Sequence record: ON528734
Length of the DNA: 64,000 nucleotides
Origin: Shigella phage ESh24
Strand: one strand, 5' to 3'
In this document: positions 3,362-47,570 of the stretch, piece after piece
Layout: each line of letters starts with the position of its first letter
Numbering within the stretch: the stretch's first letter is position 1
Program-made: the position numbers and the translations under genes
Notes under the pieces: generated by a model
Told to the model about the DNA's origin: nothing
What the model saw: only the letters and a program-made list of their open reading frames with translations
The model's database searches: none

Positions 3362-5166
3362 TATGCAATCCTTATCCAACGGTATACAGTAATAGACGGT
3401 TGAATATTACTAATATTAGCAGGAGGAGTATGTGAAGAGTTTGTTGTTGCATAATCTTCACGATATTTTGTATATATAGGACCAGTTTCATCTGGGTCAT
3501 ATTGGCAACCTCCAATAATAACCGATCCATTTTCGTCTTCAATTAAAACTCTTTCGTCGGTTTTAGTCGCAGGAAGATTTGCGTTTTCAAGTGTCACCGT
3601 TGTTGTTCCAACCGTTCCACCGGCAGTATGTGAAGGATTTCCGCTAGAATCTAAATCATTATTGTTTAAAGCAAAGTTTGGATCCGTAACATCATCATTC
3701 CATCCTACTAAAACTTGTCCTTTACCAAATAATTTCCATGAACCAAATCCCATATAAGTCACCGGATTATTTGGGTTTATAGCATTTTCATAAATTGAAC
3801 CAACAGGATAAATGCTGTCGAAAATAGATGATATTGAATTATACGTTCTAGTATAAGAATCAACTTTTTCAACATTTGGCCAACCGATTTTATCAAAATC
3901 TGTTAAGGCCACATCACCAGTAACTTCAGTAGATGATCCTTTACTAACATAACGGTCATCAGTCAATTCAATGATGTCATCTTTTTCTAAAAGAGTTCCT
4001 AAATCATTATTGAACCATGTTATAACGATTATATCACCTGATTCAAATTTTCTATCAAATAAAAGACTGATCGGTTTTCCATCTTCATATTCTATAGAAT
4101 AATCTGTGTTTGATTCTTTCCATTCACCGCCAAGAGATATACATCCTTCTTGCGTATCTGAATTAGCGCCTTCACATAAAAACAGAGGATATCCGGCTGT
4201 TCCAGCTTGTTGTTGTAAAATTCCATTAAAACGAACTTCAAGAGAGTTAGGATTAATAGGTTCACCAGGAATTAATCCAAAGGCAGAAAATGGAATTGAT
4301 TTCATCGTCGATAAATTAGTAACATAAATGCTTCCTTCTAAAGAAGTCTTTGATGTTAATTTTGAATCTAATACTTTTATTTGACGTCTTGTATATGAAC
4401 TTCTCCACTGCGATACACCATCCATAAATGTTTCAATTTGAACAGTGTCACCAACATTACAAGGCTGTCTTAATCTAATATTAAATCCATCAAGAGGAAT
4501 CAATTCTCCTTCATTTTCCCCAGGAGAGCCAAAGTCACTGTTTTCGCTAAATACATCACCGTAATACAATTCGTTACCACGATGTTTTACTCTGATGTTG
4601 TTGACATTATAACTAGTTCCATTAAAAACATCTAAAAAGTCTGTTTGTCCTTGAACTTCGACTAAAAATTCTTTACGAGCTACATTGCTAATGTCTGAAC
4701 TAATAATTTTGTCAATTTGTTTATTTTTGACATATTCCCAACGACCCGGAGCGCAATAAACTAGCTCTAAATCACTAAATTGAACGTTAATTTCAACCGA
4801 TGACGATGATCCTTTGATAGTATCACCAGAAGCGGCTACTAAAGTAACTGGATTAACATTCCATGTTGCAAATACATCCCTAGCTCTAATTACTTTATTA
4901 TAATCATTAACAGTTCCTTTAGGAAGTTGCAGTGTTACTCTTCCAGACGAAGTATTAATAGCGTATGATTTTCCCCATTCAGCTTTTAACGTTTGCCCAG
5001 ATGAAGCATTATAAGTTTTCCAGGCACCGGCTGAATATGGAACATTACCATCACCAAGTTCATAATAAAGCTCATCAAAGTTTTCATTTATTTTTATACC
5101 ACCTTTACGCAGGTAGTCACCGGTACCATCATCTACAACATTACCGATATTAATATTTTGTTTCAT
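3361..5166 (-). CDS. 10: baseplate wedge protein
   Basis: 601-aa minus ORF; size and synteny match T4 gp10 (602 aa). Confidence 0.9.
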
Positions 5167-20116: not shown

Positions 20117-20189
20117 TGGGAATTAGCCAAGTTGGTAAGGCATAGCACTTTGACTGCTAGATGCAAAGGTTCGAGTCCTTTATTCCCAG
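20117..20189 (+). tRNA. tRNA-Gln (anticodon TTG)
   Basis: Cloverleaf: acceptor tgggaat/attccca, anticodon loop ctTTGac, T-arm ggttcgagtcc; no encoded CCA. Confidence 0.85.
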
Positions 20190-20190
20190 C

Positions 20191-20277
20191 GCGAGAATGG
20201 TCAAATTGGTAAAGGCACAGCACTTAAAATGCTGCGGAATGATTTCCTTGTGGGTTCGAGTCCCACTTCTCGCACCA
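20191..20277 (+). tRNA. tRNA-Leu (anticodon TAA), type II
   Basis: Acceptor gcgagaa/ttctcgc, anticodon loop ctTAAaa, long variable arm, 3' CCA encoded. Confidence 0.85.
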
Positions 20278-20282
20278 AATTT

Positions 20283-20356
<74 letters not shown>

Positions 20357-20402
20357 ATTTATGACTCGTCGTGAGACGCTCAGTTCTTTATTAGGGACTG
20401 AT

Positions 20403-21011
20403 ATGCATTTTTATCTTTATAAAATAACAAATAAAATTAATAATAAAATTTATATTGGTGTGCATTCTACCGAAAATTTAGATGATGGATATATGGGTTC
20501 TGGTAAATTATTAAAAAGAGCCCAAGATAAATATGGTATAGAAAATTTTTCTAAAGAAATATTAGAGTATTTTGACGATAAAGAATCTATGCTTGAAGCC
20601 GAGAAAAATATTGTCACAGAAGAGTTTTTAAATAGACCAGATGTGTATAATTTAAAACTTGGAGGTGAAGGTGGATGGGATCATATAAATAATTATCCTA
20701 TGACAGATCAGCAACGCGAATTAATTTCATTGGGTGTTAAAAAGGCACATTCTAATGGAAAATTAAAAGGATGGTCTTCAAATGGATTAATGAAGAATGG
20801 CTTTGCTGGTAAAACTCATTCTCAAGAAGCTAAACGTAAAATAGCAAAAGCAAACGAAGCAAAAGTTTCTGTGGATGAAAGAAAAAGAAGAATAGAAATT
20901 TCTAAATTATATGATTTTTCTAAACGTGGCGAATTGTCTAAATATGCTAAGCATATTGGCGTAAGTCATACTCAAGCAAAAAGAATTCTAAATCAAATTA
21001 ACAATATATAA
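20403..21011 (+). CDS. segB: GIY-YIG homing endonuclease in the tRNA cluster
   Basis: GIY-YIG motif FYLYKITNKINNKIYIGVHSTENLDDGYMGSGKLLKRA; start ATG 20403 (RBS aggga), alternative ATG 20361. Confidence 0.8.
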   Translation: MHFYLYKITNKINNKIYIGVHSTENLDDGYMGSGKLLKRAQDKYGIENFSKEILEYFDDKESMLEAEKNIVTEEFLNRPDVYNLKLGGEGGWDHINNYPMTDQQRELISLGVKKAHSNGKLKGWSSNGLMKNGFAGKTHSQEAKRKIAKANEAKVSVDERKRRIEISKLYDFSKRGELSKYAKHIGVSHTQAKRILNQINNI

Positions 21012-21017
21012 ATATTT

Positions 21018-21107
21018 GGAGGCGTGGCAGAGTGGTTTAATGCACCGGTCTTGAAAATCGGCAGTCGCTCCGGCGACTCATAGGTTCAAATCCTATCGCC
21101 TCCGCCA
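21018..21107 (+). tRNA. tRNA-Ser (anticodon TGA), type II
   Basis: Acceptor ggaggcg/cgcctcc, anticodon loop cTTGAaa, long variable arm, CCA encoded. Confidence 0.85.
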
Positions 21108-21112
21108 GTTTT

Positions 21113-21188
21113 GCTGATTTAGCTTAGTAGGTAGAGCAACTCACTTGTAATGAGAAGGTCGGCGGTTCGATTCCGTCAATCAGCACCA
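21113..21188 (+). tRNA. tRNA-Thr (anticodon TGT)
   Basis: Acceptor gctgatt/aatcagc, anticodon loop cTTGTaa, T-arm ggttcgattcc, CCA encoded. Confidence 0.85.
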
Positions 21189-21189
21189 A

Positions 21190-21264
21190 GGCCCTGTAGC
21201 TGGAAGGTTCAAGCAAGCGACTCATAATCGCCAGATGGTGGTTCAATTCCACCCAGGGCCACCA
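21190..21264 (+). tRNA. tRNA with anticodon CAT (Ile2 or Met; Ile by position in T4)
   Basis: Acceptor ggccctg/cagggcc, anticodon loop ctCATaa, T-arm ggttcaattcc, CCA encoded. Confidence 0.8.
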
Positions 21265-21276
21265 AATTATGAATTA

Positions 21277-21363
21277 GGGGAGTTATCCCGTAGAGGTAGC
21301 GGTGTGGACTGTAAATCCATTGTCATTGCGACTCGGGTGGTTCGACTCCATCACTCCCCACCA
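21277..21363 (+). tRNA. tRNA-Tyr (anticodon GTA), type II
   Basis: Acceptor ggggagt/actcccc, anticodon stem-loop gtgga-ctGTAaa-tccat, long variable arm, T-arm ggtgg-ttcgact-ccatc, CCA encoded. Confidence 0.75.
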
Positions 21364-21367
21364 ATTT

Positions 21368-21442
21368 GGATGTGTAGCTCAATGGCAGAGCGATCGCCTG
21401 TTAAGCGATTGGTTATAGGTTCGAATCCTATCACGTCCGCCA
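21368..21442 (+). tRNA. tRNA-Asn (anticodon GTT)
   Basis: Acceptor ggatgtg/cacgtcc, anticodon stem-loop atcgc-ctGTTaa-gcgat, T-arm ggttcgaatcc, CCA encoded. Confidence 0.8.
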
Positions 21443-21446
21443 AATA

Positions 21447-21522
21447 CGAGGCATAGCTCAGAAGGAAGAGCAAGGACCTTCTAAGTCCTAGGTCGTAGGT
21501 TCGATCCCTACTGCCTCGACCA
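21447..21522 (+). tRNA. tRNA-Arg (anticodon TCT)
   Basis: Acceptor cgaggca/tgcctcg, anticodon stem-loop aggac-cTTCTaa-gtcct, T-arm ggttcgatccc, CCA encoded. Confidence 0.85.
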
Positions 21523-21894: not shown

Positions 21895-22230
21895 CGGGTC
21901 GCTACCGGTAAGTCGTCGGACTGATGTTCCCTGGGTAAGGAATCGTGTTAATAAATCTTTATGATTTGTTGATGCCCTCTTACATCACAGCAGAAACGGC
22001 GCACCGAATTATCGATTCGAGGAAATATCTTTGCCGTAAGCCGAGTAGCGTTTTTGACGGAACGTTCGGATATGGTCGAGATATGGCCTTTTAAAAAAAT
22101 ATTGAGTAGCGTCAACTGCTTAATAACCGGGTTCGAATCCCGGCGTTTCGTACAAACACTTGCCTTAGCAGGTGGAACCCCGACAAGGTTGCCGCAAGGC
22201 TTAGCCCCGACCGAAAGGTTGGGGCTTTTT
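21895..22230 (+). ncRNA. candidate stable structured RNA(s), possibly the counterpart of T4 species 1/2 (rnaC/rnaD) RNAs
   Basis: Visibly more GC-rich than flanks; tRNA-like T-arm aaccgggttcgaatcccgg; ends in terminator gccccgacc-gaaa-ggttggggc + TTTTT (22204-22230); no convincing ORF. Confidence 0.4.
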
Positions 22231-22305
22231 AGTTTGAATCACTCAGAGAATGCTGTTACGGATAATAAATAATTAATAACCAATAAATTATTTCAAGGAT
22301 TTTAA

Positions 22306-22869
22306 ATGAAAACCTATGCCGAATTTTTAACCGAAGCAGCAAAATTACCATCTGAAGCAGATCTTACTAAAGTATTCTTCCACTTGGACCCAAAAGACCG
22401 GGGCGATTTTCTTAAGTGGAAAGCTAAAGCTATTGAAATGTATAACATCGATAATAGTTCTTTTACGATGAGTCAAGAAAATAAATTCAATAAAGCATTT
22501 TTCAAAATTTCTAAGAAACTTGCATCAGGCGCTCAGGTTCCTAAATCTGCCTTAGCTACTCCTGAACGTGCGCCTGTTAAAATTTCTAAGAATATGTTCG
22601 ATACTAAAAAATACGTTAATGCTTTGAATAAAGCTCTTGATGCATTGGATGATGCAAAGAAGGCAGCACACGATCTTCAAGACGTATACACCGATTTTGA
22701 TCGTAAAACTAAAGGTTCTATTTCAAATAGCGAACGCAATAGTGTAAGTGTTTATTCTGATAGCCTTGATGTTCTTGGCGATGCGTATACTGAAATTAAA
22801 AATCGTATTAACACCGCATCTAAGCTAAAAGCTGCCGCAGAAGCTATAATAACTAAACTAAGCAAATAA
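22306..22869 (+). CDS. internal-protein-like protein with capsid-targeting sequence (MKTYAEFLTE-A)
   Basis: 187 aa; first 10 residues match the CTS pattern shared with the 27137 and 27827 products; RBS aagga. Confidence 0.7.
   Translation: MKTYAEFLTEAAKLPSEADLTKVFFHLDPKDRGDFLKWKAKAIEMYNIDNSSFTMSQENKFNKAFFKISKKLASGAQVPKSALATPERAPVKISKNMFDTKKYVNALNKALDALDDAKKAAHDLQDVYTDFDRKTKGSISNSERNSVSVYSDSLDVLGDAYTEIKNRINTASKLKAAAEAIITKLSK

Positions 22870-26077: not shown

Positions 26078-26096
<19 letters not shown>
25776..26096 (+). CDS. small membrane protein, paralogue family member 3
   Basis: 106 aa; two TM helices; C-terminal NNFITECRKLQ. Confidence 0.6.
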
Positions 26097-27065
<969 letters not shown>

Positions 27066-27069
27066 AGTT

Positions 27070-27101
27070 GTTTACTTTCTCCTAAAACTGTGATAGTATA
27101 T
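27070..27101 (+). promoter_or_regulatory. early-type promoter with -10 element in hairpin loop
   Basis: gtttac at 27070-27075; -10-like tgatagtatatt within inverted repeat aactgtga/tcacagtt (27086-27109). Confidence 0.45.
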
Positions 27102-27136
27102 TCACAGTTACTAATTAAAATATTTAAAGGAAACAC

Positions 27137-27718
27137 ATGAAAACGTATAAAGAATTTATCGCTGAAGCTTCTGTGGAAAAGGCCAAAGGCATTAATAAAG
27201 ATGAGTGGACCTACCGTTCGGGAAACGGCTTTGACCCTAAAACGGCTCCTATTGAACGGTACTTAGCTACAAAGGCTTCCGACTTTAAAGCCTTCGCTTG
27301 GGAAGGACTTCGTTGGCGTACCGATTTAAATATTGAAGTTGATGGACTTAAATTTGGCCATATTCAGGATGTTGTTGCTAGTAACTTAGACGCAGCTTTT
27401 GTTAAAGCCGACGGTGACCTTCGTCGCTGGAATTTAAAACTGTTCTCTAAACAGAAAGGCCCGGTGTTTGTGCCTAAAGCTGGTAAATGGGTTATTGATA
27501 ATAAATTAGCTAAGGCTGTCAACTACGCTGGTCTTGAATTCGCCAAGCACAAATCATCATGGAGAAGTCTTGATGCAATGGCCTTCCGTAAAGAATTCGC
27601 CGAGGTTATGACTAAAGGCGGCTTTAAGGCAGAACTAGATACCTCTAAAGGTACGTTTAAAGACGCTAATGTTCAGTACGCTTACGCCGTTGCTAATGCA
27701 GCCCGCGGTAATTCTTAA
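27137..27718 (+). CDS. ipIII: internal protein III-like (capsid-targeting sequence MKTYKEFIAE-A)
   Basis: 193 aa (T4 IPIII is 194 aa); CTS; position adjacent to e. Confidence 0.75.
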   Translation: MKTYKEFIAEASVEKAKGINKDEWTYRSGNGFDPKTAPIERYLATKASDFKAFAWEGLRWRTDLNIEVDGLKFGHIQDVVASNLDAAFVKADGDLRRWNLKLFSKQKGPVFVPKAGKWVIDNKLAKAVNYAGLEFAKHKSSWRSLDAMAFRKEFAEVMTKGGFKAELDTSKGTFKDANVQYAYAVANAARGNS

Positions 27719-27734
27719 TAAAGCCGAGTTCGAA

Positions 27735-27800
27735 CCTGGTAATTGATAAATACAGAAACGGGCAATTCATGTGTGTGAATTGCCTCAAACTTAAAGAATA
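27735..27800. repeat. intergenic direct repeat, copy 1 (core AAATACAGAAACGGGCAATTCATG), contains palindrome ggcaattca…tgaattgcc
   Basis: Second copy at 28360-28450; a partial third (aaatacagaaaacgg) at about 23421-23435. Confidence 0.6.
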
Positions 27801-27826
27801 AAACTATTTACATTTAAAGGAAACAC

Positions 27827-28300
27827 ATGAAAACATATCAAGAATTTATTACTGAAGCAGCTATTAATTCTCAAATTATTGCTGAATCTTTTACTGATCT
27901 TTTGAAATTTAAAAAAGGACAGAAAATCACTGCTGTATTGGATGATGGTACAGAAGTTGAGATGGATGTGCAAGGATATAATTATGCAGTAGATGGAAAA
28001 CTGTATAATAAATCTCATGCTAAATTTGATTCATTTGACGACTTTGTTAATACAGTTGAAGATGAAAAAACTCGTCGATCCATTGCAACTGGTGATGCTA
28101 AGGTTCTTATGGCACATGGTCATGAACGCATTCGCGCTAAACAGAATAAAATGGGTGAAGATAATTTTGCATTAGTCGGTTATCAATCTGGTAAACAAAC
28201 CTATGGTTATCAGCGTACTGCTACCATGTATAACAAAAATGGTAAAATTGCCTTTGTAAATAGTAAAGGTTCTATTCAGTACGTTAAATCATTCAAATAA
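27827..28300 (+). CDS. internal-protein-like protein with capsid-targeting sequence (MKTYQEFITE-A)
   Basis: 157 aa; canonical CTS; body unlike the 27137 product and longer than T4 IPII (100 aa). Confidence 0.7.
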   Translation: MKTYQEFITEAAINSQIIAESFTDLLKFKKGQKITAVLDDGTEVEMDVQGYNYAVDGKLYNKSHAKFDSFDDFVNTVEDEKTRRSIATGDAKVLMAHGHERIRAKQNKMGEDNFALVGYQSGKQTYGYQRTATMYNKNGKIAFVNSKGSIQYVKSFK

Positions 28301-28359
28301 GCAAATAAGAAATATGGGAACAAACTGGACCTCATGATTCTGTGAGGGATTCCCGCCAA

Positions 28360-28450
28360 CCTGTAATAAGGTCGAGCCCAAGTGCGGTAATGGGTAAATA
28401 CAGAAATGGACAATTCATGCGCCACGGAATGGCCCAAACTTAGAGAGAAT
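28360..28450. repeat. intergenic direct repeat, copy 2 (core AAATACAGAAATGGACAATTCATG)
   Basis: ~80% identical to 27735-27800; together they bracket the 27827 gene. Confidence 0.6.
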
Positions 28451-28453
28451 AAA

Positions 28454-28996
28454 ATGAGAACATTTTTAACTGGTCCTTATCTATCCCTGATGAATGCTTT
28501 TACACACCATTCTGATGCTAGAGTAGAAGAAATTTGTAAGAATGATTATCTTCCACCAATGGAAGATGTGCTCAAACAGTACTGCACACTTCGTATAGAT
28601 GGTGGACGTCAATCCGGTAAATCAATTGCTGTGACTAACTTTGCTGCTAATTGGCTGTATGATGGCGGAACAGTTATTGTTCTTTCTAATACTTCAGCTT
28701 ACGCTAAAATTTCTGCAAATAACATTAAAAAGGAATTTTCGCGTTATTCTAATGATGATATACGTTTTCGTTTATTTACTGATTCTGTCCGTAGTTTTAT
28801 CGGTAATGAAGGTCATAAATTCCGTGGGTTATCGCTTTCTCGTATCTTGTACATAATTGACGAACCTATTAAAGCTCCTGATATGGATAAGATTTACAAT
28901 ATCCATATTAAAACGGTACAACACTGTTGTCGAAGCTATAATGCTGAAACAGGTGAAACAGTTCGTCCTCAATTTTTTGTGATTGGAATGCAATGA
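28454..28996 (+). CDS. small P-loop NTPase
   Basis: 180 aa from ATG 28454 (RBS gagaataaa); Walker A GGRQSGKS, Walker B ILYIIDEP. Confidence 0.65.
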   Translation: MRTFLTGPYLSLMNAFTHHSDARVEEICKNDYLPPMEDVLKQYCTLRIDGGRQSGKSIAVTNFAANWLYDGGTVIVLSNTSAYAKISANNIKKEFSRYSNDDIRFRLFTDSVRSFIGNEGHKFRGLSLSRILYIIDEPIKAPDMDKIYNIHIKTVQHCCRSYNAETGETVRPQFFVIGMQ

Positions 28997-29322
28997 TGAC
29001 AGACACACAGCTTTTCGAATATCTTTATTTTTCGCCAAAAACTATTAAAAATAAATTGGTGAATCATTTTGAAATTTTGGCAAATAACAACATTTTGAGC
29101 GAATTTTATCCCAAGCAATACAAATTACAAAAAGGCGTATTCAAAGGATGCAGAGTTTTGTGCACGGCTCCTAATGCACGGCTAATGAATAAAATTCCAT
29201 ATTTTACCATGGAATTTATTGATGGGCCTTTTAAAGGACTAATCACGCAGAGTTTAATGGCATATGATTCTGAGCCATTTTTAATTAAAGAACAATCTTG
29301 GATAAATTTATTTTCTAATTGA
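28993..29322 (+). CDS. hypothetical protein
   Basis: 109-aa ORF overlapping the previous stop. Confidence 0.55.
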
Positions 29323-29329
29323 GGTTTAT

Positions 29330-29692
29330 ATGAAAGCATATCAAATTCTTGAAGGCACGCATAAAGGTACTATTTATTTTGAAGATGGTATTCAAGCACG
29401 AATTATTGTCTCTAAAACCTTTAAAGAGGACTCTTTTGTAGACCCAGAAATTTTCTACGGTTTGCATGCCCGTGAAATTGAAATTGAAACACAACCTACA
29501 GTTAAAATTGAAGGTGGTCAACACCTGAACGTTAACGTTCTGCGTCGTGAAACTCTGGAAGATGCAGTTAAGCATCCGGAAAAATATCCGCAGCTGACCA
29601 TCCGTGTATCCGGTTATGCAGTTCGCTTTAACTCTCTGACTCCGGAACAGCAGCGCGACGTTATCGCTCGTACCTTCACCGAGAGTTTGTAA
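29330..29692 (+). CDS. autonomous glycyl-radical cofactor (GrcA/YfiD-like)
   Basis: C-terminal [60 protein letters not shown] matches E. coli YfiD glycyl-radical domain (RVSGYAV); a T4 counterpart (Y06I) is described. Confidence 0.85.
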
Positions 29693-29913
29693 TGGCAAAG
29701 ATAATTATTGAAGGTTCTAAAGATGTGCTAAATGCTTTCGCCGAGTGGTTTAGTAATTCAGGCGAACAGCAATTTAATGAAGCATGGAACATGGGTGATA
29801 TTAATGGAATTTATCCTACGACAGAAATTTCTGTTCAGGGATATGGCATTCATGAACCTATTCGTTTAGTTGAATATGATTTATGCACTGGTGAGGAAGT
29901 CAAATATGATTGA
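29692..29913 (+). CDS. hypothetical protein
   Basis: 73-aa ORF, TAATG overlap with upstream gene. Confidence 0.5.
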   Translation: MAKIIIEGSKDVLNAFAEWFSNSGEQQFNEAWNMGDINGIYPTTEISVQGYGIHEPIRLVEYDLCTGEEVKYD

Positions 29914-47096: not shown

Positions 47097-47570
47097 ATGT
47101 TATTGACTGGCAAATTATACAAAGAAGAAAAACAGAAATTTTATGATGCACAAAATGGTAAATGTTTAATTTGCCAGCGAGAACTAAATCCTGATGTTCA
47201 AGCTAATCATCTTGATCATGACCATGAATTAAATGGACCAAAAGCAGGAAAGGTACGTGGATTGCTTTGTAATCTCTGCAATGCCGCAGAAGGTCAAATG
47301 AAACATAAATTTAATCGTTCTGGCTTAAAGGGGCAAGGTGTTGATTATCTTGAATGGTTAGAAAATTTACTTACTTATTTAAAATCCGATTACACCCAAA
47401 ATAATATTCACCCTAACTTTGTTGGAGATAAATCAAAGGAATTTTCTCGTTTAGGAAAAGATGAAATGATGGCTGAGATGCTTCAAAGAGGATTTGAATA
47501 TAATGAATCTGACACTAAAACACAGTTAATAGCTTCATTTAAGAAGCAGCTTAGAAAGAGTTTAAAATGA
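47097..47570 (+). CDS. 49: endonuclease VII (Holliday junction resolvase)
   Basis: 157 aa; Zn-binding cysteines CLICQ…CNLCN and HLDHDHE motif; same length as T4 gp49. Confidence 0.85.
   Translation: MLLTGKLYKEEKQKFYDAQNGKCLICQRELNPDVQANHLDHDHELNGPKAGKVRGLLCNLCNAAEGQMKHKFNRSGLKGQGVDYLEWLENLLTYLKSDYTQNNIHPNFVGDKSKEFSRLGKDEMMAEMLQRGFEYNESDTKTQLIASFKKQLRKSLK

Follow-up and report, generated by a model that had tools for sequence, protein, structure and literature searches.

Shigella phage ESh24 carries vs.8 and vs.7 in T4 order without denV at its internal-protein locus, behind a leader that may contain a structured RNA

In the T4-like Shigella phage ESh24, the interval between the last internal-protein (IP) gene and vs.6 very probably consists of a leader, vs.8 and vs.7 in their normal T4 order, with denV being an optional passenger of the IP locus that nothing has replaced. 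The 64-kb stretch of ESh24 DNA that we analyzed (hereafter the window) belongs to a T4-like (Tequatrovirus) genome, with early transcription running along its + strand. The interval finding itself is already known, as a previously sequenced variant of a well-known polymorphic region. Only the leader might be new.

Gene order and the absence of denV

The T4 reference record gives the order e, ipIII, ipII, denV, vs.8, vs.7, vs.6, vs.5, vs.4, vs.3, regB, and the window reads e-ipIII-Ip4-vs.8-vs.7-vs.6 (Table 1). The actual difference lies upstream of vs.8, where T4 has ipII and denV and the window has Ip4. This Ip4 gene sits in the slot of T4 ipII, is annotated as Ip4 in RB51, and has a local identity of only 33% to T4 IpII. 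Gene e, annotated likewise in RB51, wV7, ECML-134 and T4, forms the left border of the variable locus; the right border, also constant, is the leader with vs.8. The next conserved gene after vs.7 is vs.6, confirming the synteny.

Table 1. Features of the ESh24 window in and around the IP locus
Feature	Positions	Strand	Remarks
nudE	26078-26533		
e (lysozyme)	26571-27065	+	96% nt identity to T4 e; left border of IP locus, constant
ipIII (internal virion protein III)	27137-27718	+	92% aa identity to T4 IpIII; phrog_5341 E = 1.6e-117
Repeat D10, copy a	27716-27806	+	degenerate partial copy of the vs.8 leader, 3' of ipIII
Repeat D4	27812-27858	+	5' flank of IP cassette; ribosome-binding site and MKTYQEFI... 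packaging-signal codons
Ip4-type internal virion protein (DUF7412)	27827-28300	+	Pfam E = 5.7e-96; phrog_3155 E = 6e-102
Stretch between Ip4 and vs.8 ORFs	28301-28453		153 nt
vs.8 leader, conserved, apparently non-coding	28316-28453	+	near-identical in T4, RB51 and ECML-134 whatever the upstream gene
Leader outer stem	28316-28320 / 28350-28354		
Leader inner hairpin	28330-28347		
Leader core	28356-28393	+	38 nt; CCA-ACCUGU-RRN-AAGGUCGAGCC-NNNNN-GCGGUAA-UGG
Core closing pairs	28358:28391, 28357:28392, 28356:28393		covarying
Leader 3' hairpin	28421-28433		
Leader ribosome-binding site	28442-28447		
vs.8, P-loop ORF	28454-28996	+	180 aa
vs.7	28993-29322	+	109 aa; 99% aa identity to T4 vs.7 (tblastn); phrog_2049 E = 3e-54
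vs.6, GrcA-like autonomous glycyl-radical cofactor	29330-29692	+	Pfam Gly_radical E = 2.2e-18; 98% aa identity to T4 vs.6

Other phages share this arrangement or vary it upstream of vs.8. A megablast search with 27800-29800 matched 885 phage records, among them RB51, which names the three genes vs.8, vs.7 and vs.6. The arrangement of the window is also found in 13 GenBank records (at least 80% coverage). Similar to the window, ECML-134, vB_EcoM_SCS4, Shfl2 and PST have this gene order without denV and are 94-96% identical in nucleotide sequence to window positions 26571-28460; the first three match at 100% coverage and 95-96% identity. RB51 and wV7 read e-denV-Ip4-vs.8, while JS10 reads e-ipIII-ORF-denV-ORF-vs.8.

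By classical genetics T2 and T6 are without the T4 v function and more UV-sensitive than T4. We did not find denV in the e region of either phage, and our literature search returned no open paper on their denV status. T2 has the order e-Ip4-leader-vs.8-vs.7 without denV (AP018813). Its vs.8 is broken into three frames (AP018813 5757-6400), as a pseudogene or through sequencing errors; in the same record vs.7 is intact, as is the leader motif, which scores 62 bits. In T6, regB comes straight after e, so that this locus has no IP genes, no denV, no leader and none of the genes from vs.8 to vs.3 (MH550421 2495-3512). The lack of vs.3 at this locus agrees with the report that T6 has no anti-Thoeris vs.3.

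No denV was found in any frame of the 64-kb window by tblastn with the T4 and RB51 DenV proteins (E <= 10, word size 2), and a sequence-only reading of this DNA had likewise seen no endonuclease V-like sequence. The only weak DenV match, at 47409-47555 with E = 3.6e-4, falls on the C-terminus of endonuclease VII, the product of gene 49 (47097-47570). Over 49 residues this end is 41% identical to DenV residues 56-101, and gene 49 is not a denV gene; a local similarity between DenV and endonuclease VII has reportedly been noted before. The absence of denV in ESh24 was seen in 64 kb, and the complete genome of ECML-134, a different phage, serves as a proxy for the whole and has no match (E <= 1). 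The window covers part of the ESh24 genome and the locus is mosaic, so that denV might have moved to a place outside the window. We consider this very improbable, as the complete ECML-134 genome has the same locus order and no denV, and as the T4-like records that we inspected place denV between e and vs.8. On the evidence of the window, ESh24 is one of the denV-less T-evens. It would have no phage-encoded pyrimidine-dimer glycosylase, and greater UV sensitivity than that of T4 would be expected.

The sequence-only reading correctly gave denV as the T4 gene beyond ipII on the side away from e. It also described the two ORFs as we find them, the P-loop ORF with its Walker A (GGRQSGKS) and Walker B (ILYIIDEP) motifs and the 109-aa ORF that follows it. 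The two ORFs overlap in an ATGA. Its placing of both ORFs in T4's denV interval was mistaken. The T4 record reads ipII-denV-vs.8-vs.7-vs.6, thus having the same P-loop ORF at essentially this position, and since vs.8 and vs.7 lie directly downstream of denV in T4 they are not denV replacements. A homology search with the P-loop protein identified it as the T4 vs.8 orthologue (phrog_1488). That a foreign module of P-loop NTPase and 109-aa ORF took the place of denV, as the missing denV and the position of both ORFs after the last IP gene might suggest, is scarcely credible when T4 vs.8 and vs.7 directly follow denV, are 87% (180-aa core) and 99% identical to the ESh24 proteins, and coexist with denV in RB51, wV7 and JS10.

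Repeats and exchange of internal-protein cassettes

The sequence-only reading had bounded its proposed module replacement by a repeat near 28360-28450. This repeat, D10, is real: 28364-28419 pairs with 27716-27771 at 77% identity over 56 nt, and the identity is about 68% over about 90 nt. What stands of the proposal is that the window differs from T4 by a cassette and that the repeat marks a boundary; the P-loop and 109-aa ORFs are not the incoming module. D10 flanks the Ip4 cassette and not vs.8 and vs.7. Further copies of the second repeat, D4, lie at 27122-27168 and 22291-22337, and the ipIII and Ip4 copies are 91% identical. The N-terminal packaging signal of IP genes has been described (PMC12373910). 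The sequences that bracket Ip4 also bracket ipIII, as would be expected of cassettes that homologous recombination can add or remove.

The vs.8 allele of the window is of the RB51/wV7 type (98-100% aa identity), and both of these phages carry denV; the vs.8 proteins of ECML-134 and T4 are 87% identical to it. The e-ipIII-Ip4 part of the window is closest to ECML-134, which is without denV. The locus is therefore mosaic, implying a recombination junction near the leader. Homologous recombination between short common flanks would account for the gain, loss and swapping of IP cassettes. One flank would be the 5' ends of the IP genes (27122-27168 and 27812-27858) and the other the leader-like 3' sequence (27716-27806 and 28364-28446). 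The two flank types together would bracket the Ip4 cassette, with denV riding along in some phages (T4, RB51, wV7). We infer this recombination history from repeats of only 68-91% identity.

Such exchange would be in keeping with what is known of the locus. The IP locus is polymorphic and its products are injected anti-restriction proteins, with Ip2 and Ip3 inhibiting GmrSD-type restriction enzymes (PMC12373910). Between PST and T4, five IP sequences differ and variable regions have been shuffled via short conserved motifs (PMC4122927). Like the PeSL cassettes of T4-type phages (PMC2839356, PMC4122927), the ESh24 repeat is a short conserved intergenic flank of variable genes, for which a role as an exchange site has been proposed. 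Unlike PeSL, which combines an early promoter with a stem-loop terminator, it lacks both a promoter consensus and a U-tract terminator, and its origin is the vs.8 leader. The repeat is not a canonical PeSL, since nothing resembling a promoter or a + strand terminator was found in 27716-27806 or 28316-28453.

The vs.8-vs.7 gene pair

The vs.8 ORF codes for 180 aa, and an upstream ATG at 28406 would extend it to 196 aa. Identity to T4 vs.8 (NP_049732) is 87% over the 180-aa core and 82% over 196 aa including the 16 upstream codons. The protein belongs to PHROG 1488 (phrog_1488, E = 1.4e-79 over residues 3-180), and its gene lies between the IP/denV locus and vs.7-vs.6 as in the T4 Vs.8 family. 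In T4, vs.8 is annotated as 219 aa, whereas the conserved ORF in the window and in RB51 is 180 aa. Homologues from all genera start at M(K/R)TFLT; they form 27 clusters with a lowest identity of 40%. Invariant among them are DGGRQSGK, R113, R124-G125, R130 and E137-P138, and of 16 sequences, 14 have D at position 136 and the other two have E. The ESh24 protein thus has a Walker A (DGGRQSGKS) and a Walker B with the catalytic Glu (ILYIIDEP), as found in the terminase large subunit.

An AlphaFold2 model of vs.8 (pLDDT 80, pTM 0.81) is a single alpha/beta domain, and Foldseek matched it to generic ASCE ATPases. The model may resemble the N-terminal ATPase domain of gp17, the large subunit of T4's terminase (PDB 2o0h), at 9% identity, but SF2-helicase RecA1 domains score equally well. 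In contrast to gp17, vs.8 is only 180 aa long and has no nuclease domain; the protein ends at residue 180 and a C-terminal RNase H-like nuclease domain is absent. Its terminase profile matches were weak (phrog_2, E = 5.7e-5) or below the cut-off (Terminase_6N, PF03237, 13.1 bits against 22). PDB sequence searches with the single sequence and with a 17-sequence profile gave nothing significant and did not reach gp17, and just the Walker A region aligned with gp17 by BLASTP (E = 0.26). PADLOC and NCBIfam had no match for vs.8 or vs.7. From the model, vs.8 is predicted to be a stand-alone ASCE/RecA-like ATPase domain of terminase-motor-like character, with a predicted ATPase chemistry. A recent preprint independently describes vs.8 as ATPase-like and uncharacterised, with homology to the ATPase domain found in T4 terminase, and as toxic together with the EcAvs2 sensor (bioRxiv 10.64898/2026.04.30.721860).

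The vs.7 ATG overlaps the vs.8 stop codon (ATGA). T4 has the same overlap, the same order and vs.6 downstream. The vs.7 protein of the window is a full-length orthologue of T4 vs.7 (NP_049731, PHROG 2049). Homologues of vs.7 are listed under PF26834 among precomputed hits, and the Pfam copy that we searched gave no match. In most T4-like loci with enough DNA, vs.7 follows vs.8 directly or within about 40 nt; the gap is 130-240 nt in a few, and vs.7 was undetected in three. The order vs.8 then vs.7 is kept in nearly all T4-like loci, at identities down to 34-38%. Only three full-length homologues of vs.7 were usable, and its AlphaFold2 model was too poor to give a fold (pLDDT 45). With their PHROG matches and homologues down to 34-40% identity, vs.8 and vs.7 are real genes and not chance ORFs. 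We treat vs.8 and the translationally coupled vs.7 as a conserved early two-gene module.

The neighbouring vs.4 is presumably Acb2. The vs.3 gene encodes the anti-Thoeris sponge TadIV-1 (PMC13243611). We favour a counter-defence role for vs.8-vs.7 because of the anti-defence reports on vs.3 and vs.4 and the toxicity of vs.8 with Avs2. Judged from this context, an accessory or counter-defence role is the most likely one.

The vs.8 leader as a candidate RNA motif

In an alignment, we set the T4 junction between denV and vs.8 against the Ip4-to-vs.8 junctions of ECML-134, RB51 and the window. Homology of all three phages with the window starts at 28316 (GGGAACAA...), right after the stop codon of the upstream gene, and extends into vs.8. 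Within the leader the core follows the DNA pattern ACCTGT-NNN-AAGGTCGAGCC-NNNNN-GCGGTAA, in which GGUCGAGCC is invariant. Among 45 distinct sequences, 93% of cells were paired in the tested structure. The closing pair 28358:28391 is AU in 28, UA in 7, UG in 6, CG in 3 and GC in 1, with no mismatches. None of 500 shuffles reached the covariation score of these 45 mutually related sequences, and pairing fell to about 40% when the partner column was shifted by one. RNAalifold of 18 T4-like leaders gave the same core and a 3' hairpin, GCC-ANGGAAN-GGC.

Upstream of the core, RNAfold of the 5' domains gave an outer stem and an inner hairpin in each lineage with differing sequences. For example, GGGAA/UUCCC in the window compares with GGGAG/CUCCC in locus L024, and GAAUG/CAUUC in L011 with GAGUG/CACUC in L013. 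Many leader pairs are G-U, and the structure is therefore specific to the gene-sense strand. As the core itself is invariant, covariation supports only the closing helix and the 5' domain. A covariance model of the motif (R1) scored 73 bits (E = 3e-20) at the core with no other match in the window, and found a single copy in the whole ECML-134 genome. Copy a of D10 is too decayed for the model to recognise. The single-sequence fold of 28296-28460 was no more stable than shuffles (z = +0.69).

To the 3' side of the core, the T4-like-specific part (28405-28433) contains conserved GGA motifs at 28407-28409 and 28426-28428, separated by about 20 nt, one in AUGGA and the other in the loop of the GCC-ACGGAAU-GGC hairpin. 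We take these two motifs to resemble CsrA-type binding sites, which would make CsrA a candidate partner of the leader.

The core recurs in unrelated phages, including Vequintavirus magaca, the 44.9-kb coliphage Ivi and the 70-kb Klebsiella phage Pylas (L013), which we take to be N4-like. The motif is found in rV5-like phages and relatives of Pylas too. Many IMG/VR and metagenome contigs also carry the core, marine and soil phage contigs among them. Of the metagenome matches to a loose pattern, about half proved to be coding sequence from unrelated genes, and we discarded these. In T4-like phages the motif is always directly 5' of vs.8-vs.7. In non-T4 phages it is on the same strand as tRNA clusters and 36-1200 nt away from them (about 19 of the 26 loci scanned); the DNA covered at the remaining loci had no tRNA. 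Some Karamvirus-like contigs have a second, diverged core copy (…CCTGTAATAAGGCCAG…) about 90 nt downstream of the first. Such copies lie at about 5109-5140 in L034 (minus strand) and about 9120-9154 in L022.

A search of 5,426 complete E. coli genomes did not turn up the core. In 185,579 species genomes there were 53 half-pattern matches, all without the 3' half, compared with an estimated 70 or so expected by chance. No Rfam 15 family matched the leader, the scans returning only tRNAs and noise; they were run in E-value mode on the window region and seven diverse loci and at the gathering threshold on the whole window. No relevant paper turned up when the literature was searched with the core sequence. 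In the tRNA region of the window, ARAGORN called a 97-nt 'tRNA-Phe (aaa)' at 22057-22153, after the tRNA cluster at 20117-21522. The Rfam tRNA model gives no support to this call, and 22057-22153 may be the counterpart of a small stable RNA from the tRNA region of T4.

Read from these comparisons, the leader is most likely transcribed and folded into a structured RNA. A more specific proposal, which we make tentatively and hold to fall a little short of probable, is that it contains an undescribed, phage-restricted structured RNA with a near-invariant 38-nt core, covarying closing pairs and a lineage-variable two-tier hairpin domain. The motif could represent a new class of small phage RNA, such as a leader that binds a ligand or a protein, a stable RNA transcribed together with tRNAs and then processed, or a small ribozyme.

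Alternatively, the leader may work as DNA and not as RNA, being a recombination or regulatory cassette of the PeSL kind or a protein-binding site. We think this unlikely. The many G-U pairs would be A-C on the opposite strand, the core always shares its strand with the adjacent genes and tRNAs, and the shape of the 5' hairpin is kept with unrelated sequences across phage families. The leader does lie at the edge of the variable region and has a degenerate copy flanking the Ip4 cassette, and PeSL elements have a known part in shuffling of this kind (PMC4122927), but it contains no early-promoter consensus.

Less likely still is that 28316-28453 is protein-coding, either as an N-terminal extension of vs.8 in the 219-aa T4 style or as a small upstream ORF. 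The first 35 residues of the 219-aa T4 vs.8 correspond to window positions 28342-28446, in a frame different from that of the vs.8 core. Positions 4797-4913 of T4 (NC_000866) correspond to 28342-28453 with a T4-specific 8-nt insertion (CTTATAGA) that brings the upstream ATG in frame. The frame does continue into vs.8 in T4 and in locus L036, but the T4 fusion is due to this insertion; a TAG at 28441-28443 closes the frame, which is out of register with vs.8, in the window, RB51 and ECML-134. In many T4-like phages an ATG or GTG precedes the core by 15-18 nt, and they share a translation, (Q/L)PVIRSSPSAV. However, several T4-like lineages (L020, L061, L012 and L019) and most other phages lack a start codon or have a stop just upstream. 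Variation is limited to two loops with no third-codon pattern, the closing pairs covary, and the shared M(K/R)TFLT start of vs.8 homologues also speaks against an extension. We rejected both the upstream-ORF reading, as the ORF is not conserved, and a minus-strand-ORF reading. The T4 annotation of vs.8 as 219 aa probably hides a non-coding element.

For the original finding little is at stake beyond the correction of a misread synteny. The higher UV sensitivity predicted for ESh24 would be relevant where such phages are used or inactivated in practice. The IP locus from e to vs.8 is probably a cassette-exchange site carrying injected anti-restriction proteins. Beside it, the leader is a compact, very strongly conserved motif that unrelated lytic phages have in common and that is associated with tRNA clusters. 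Should it prove to be a functional RNA, it would represent new and easily testable phage RNA biology next to a protein implicated in Avs2 sensing.
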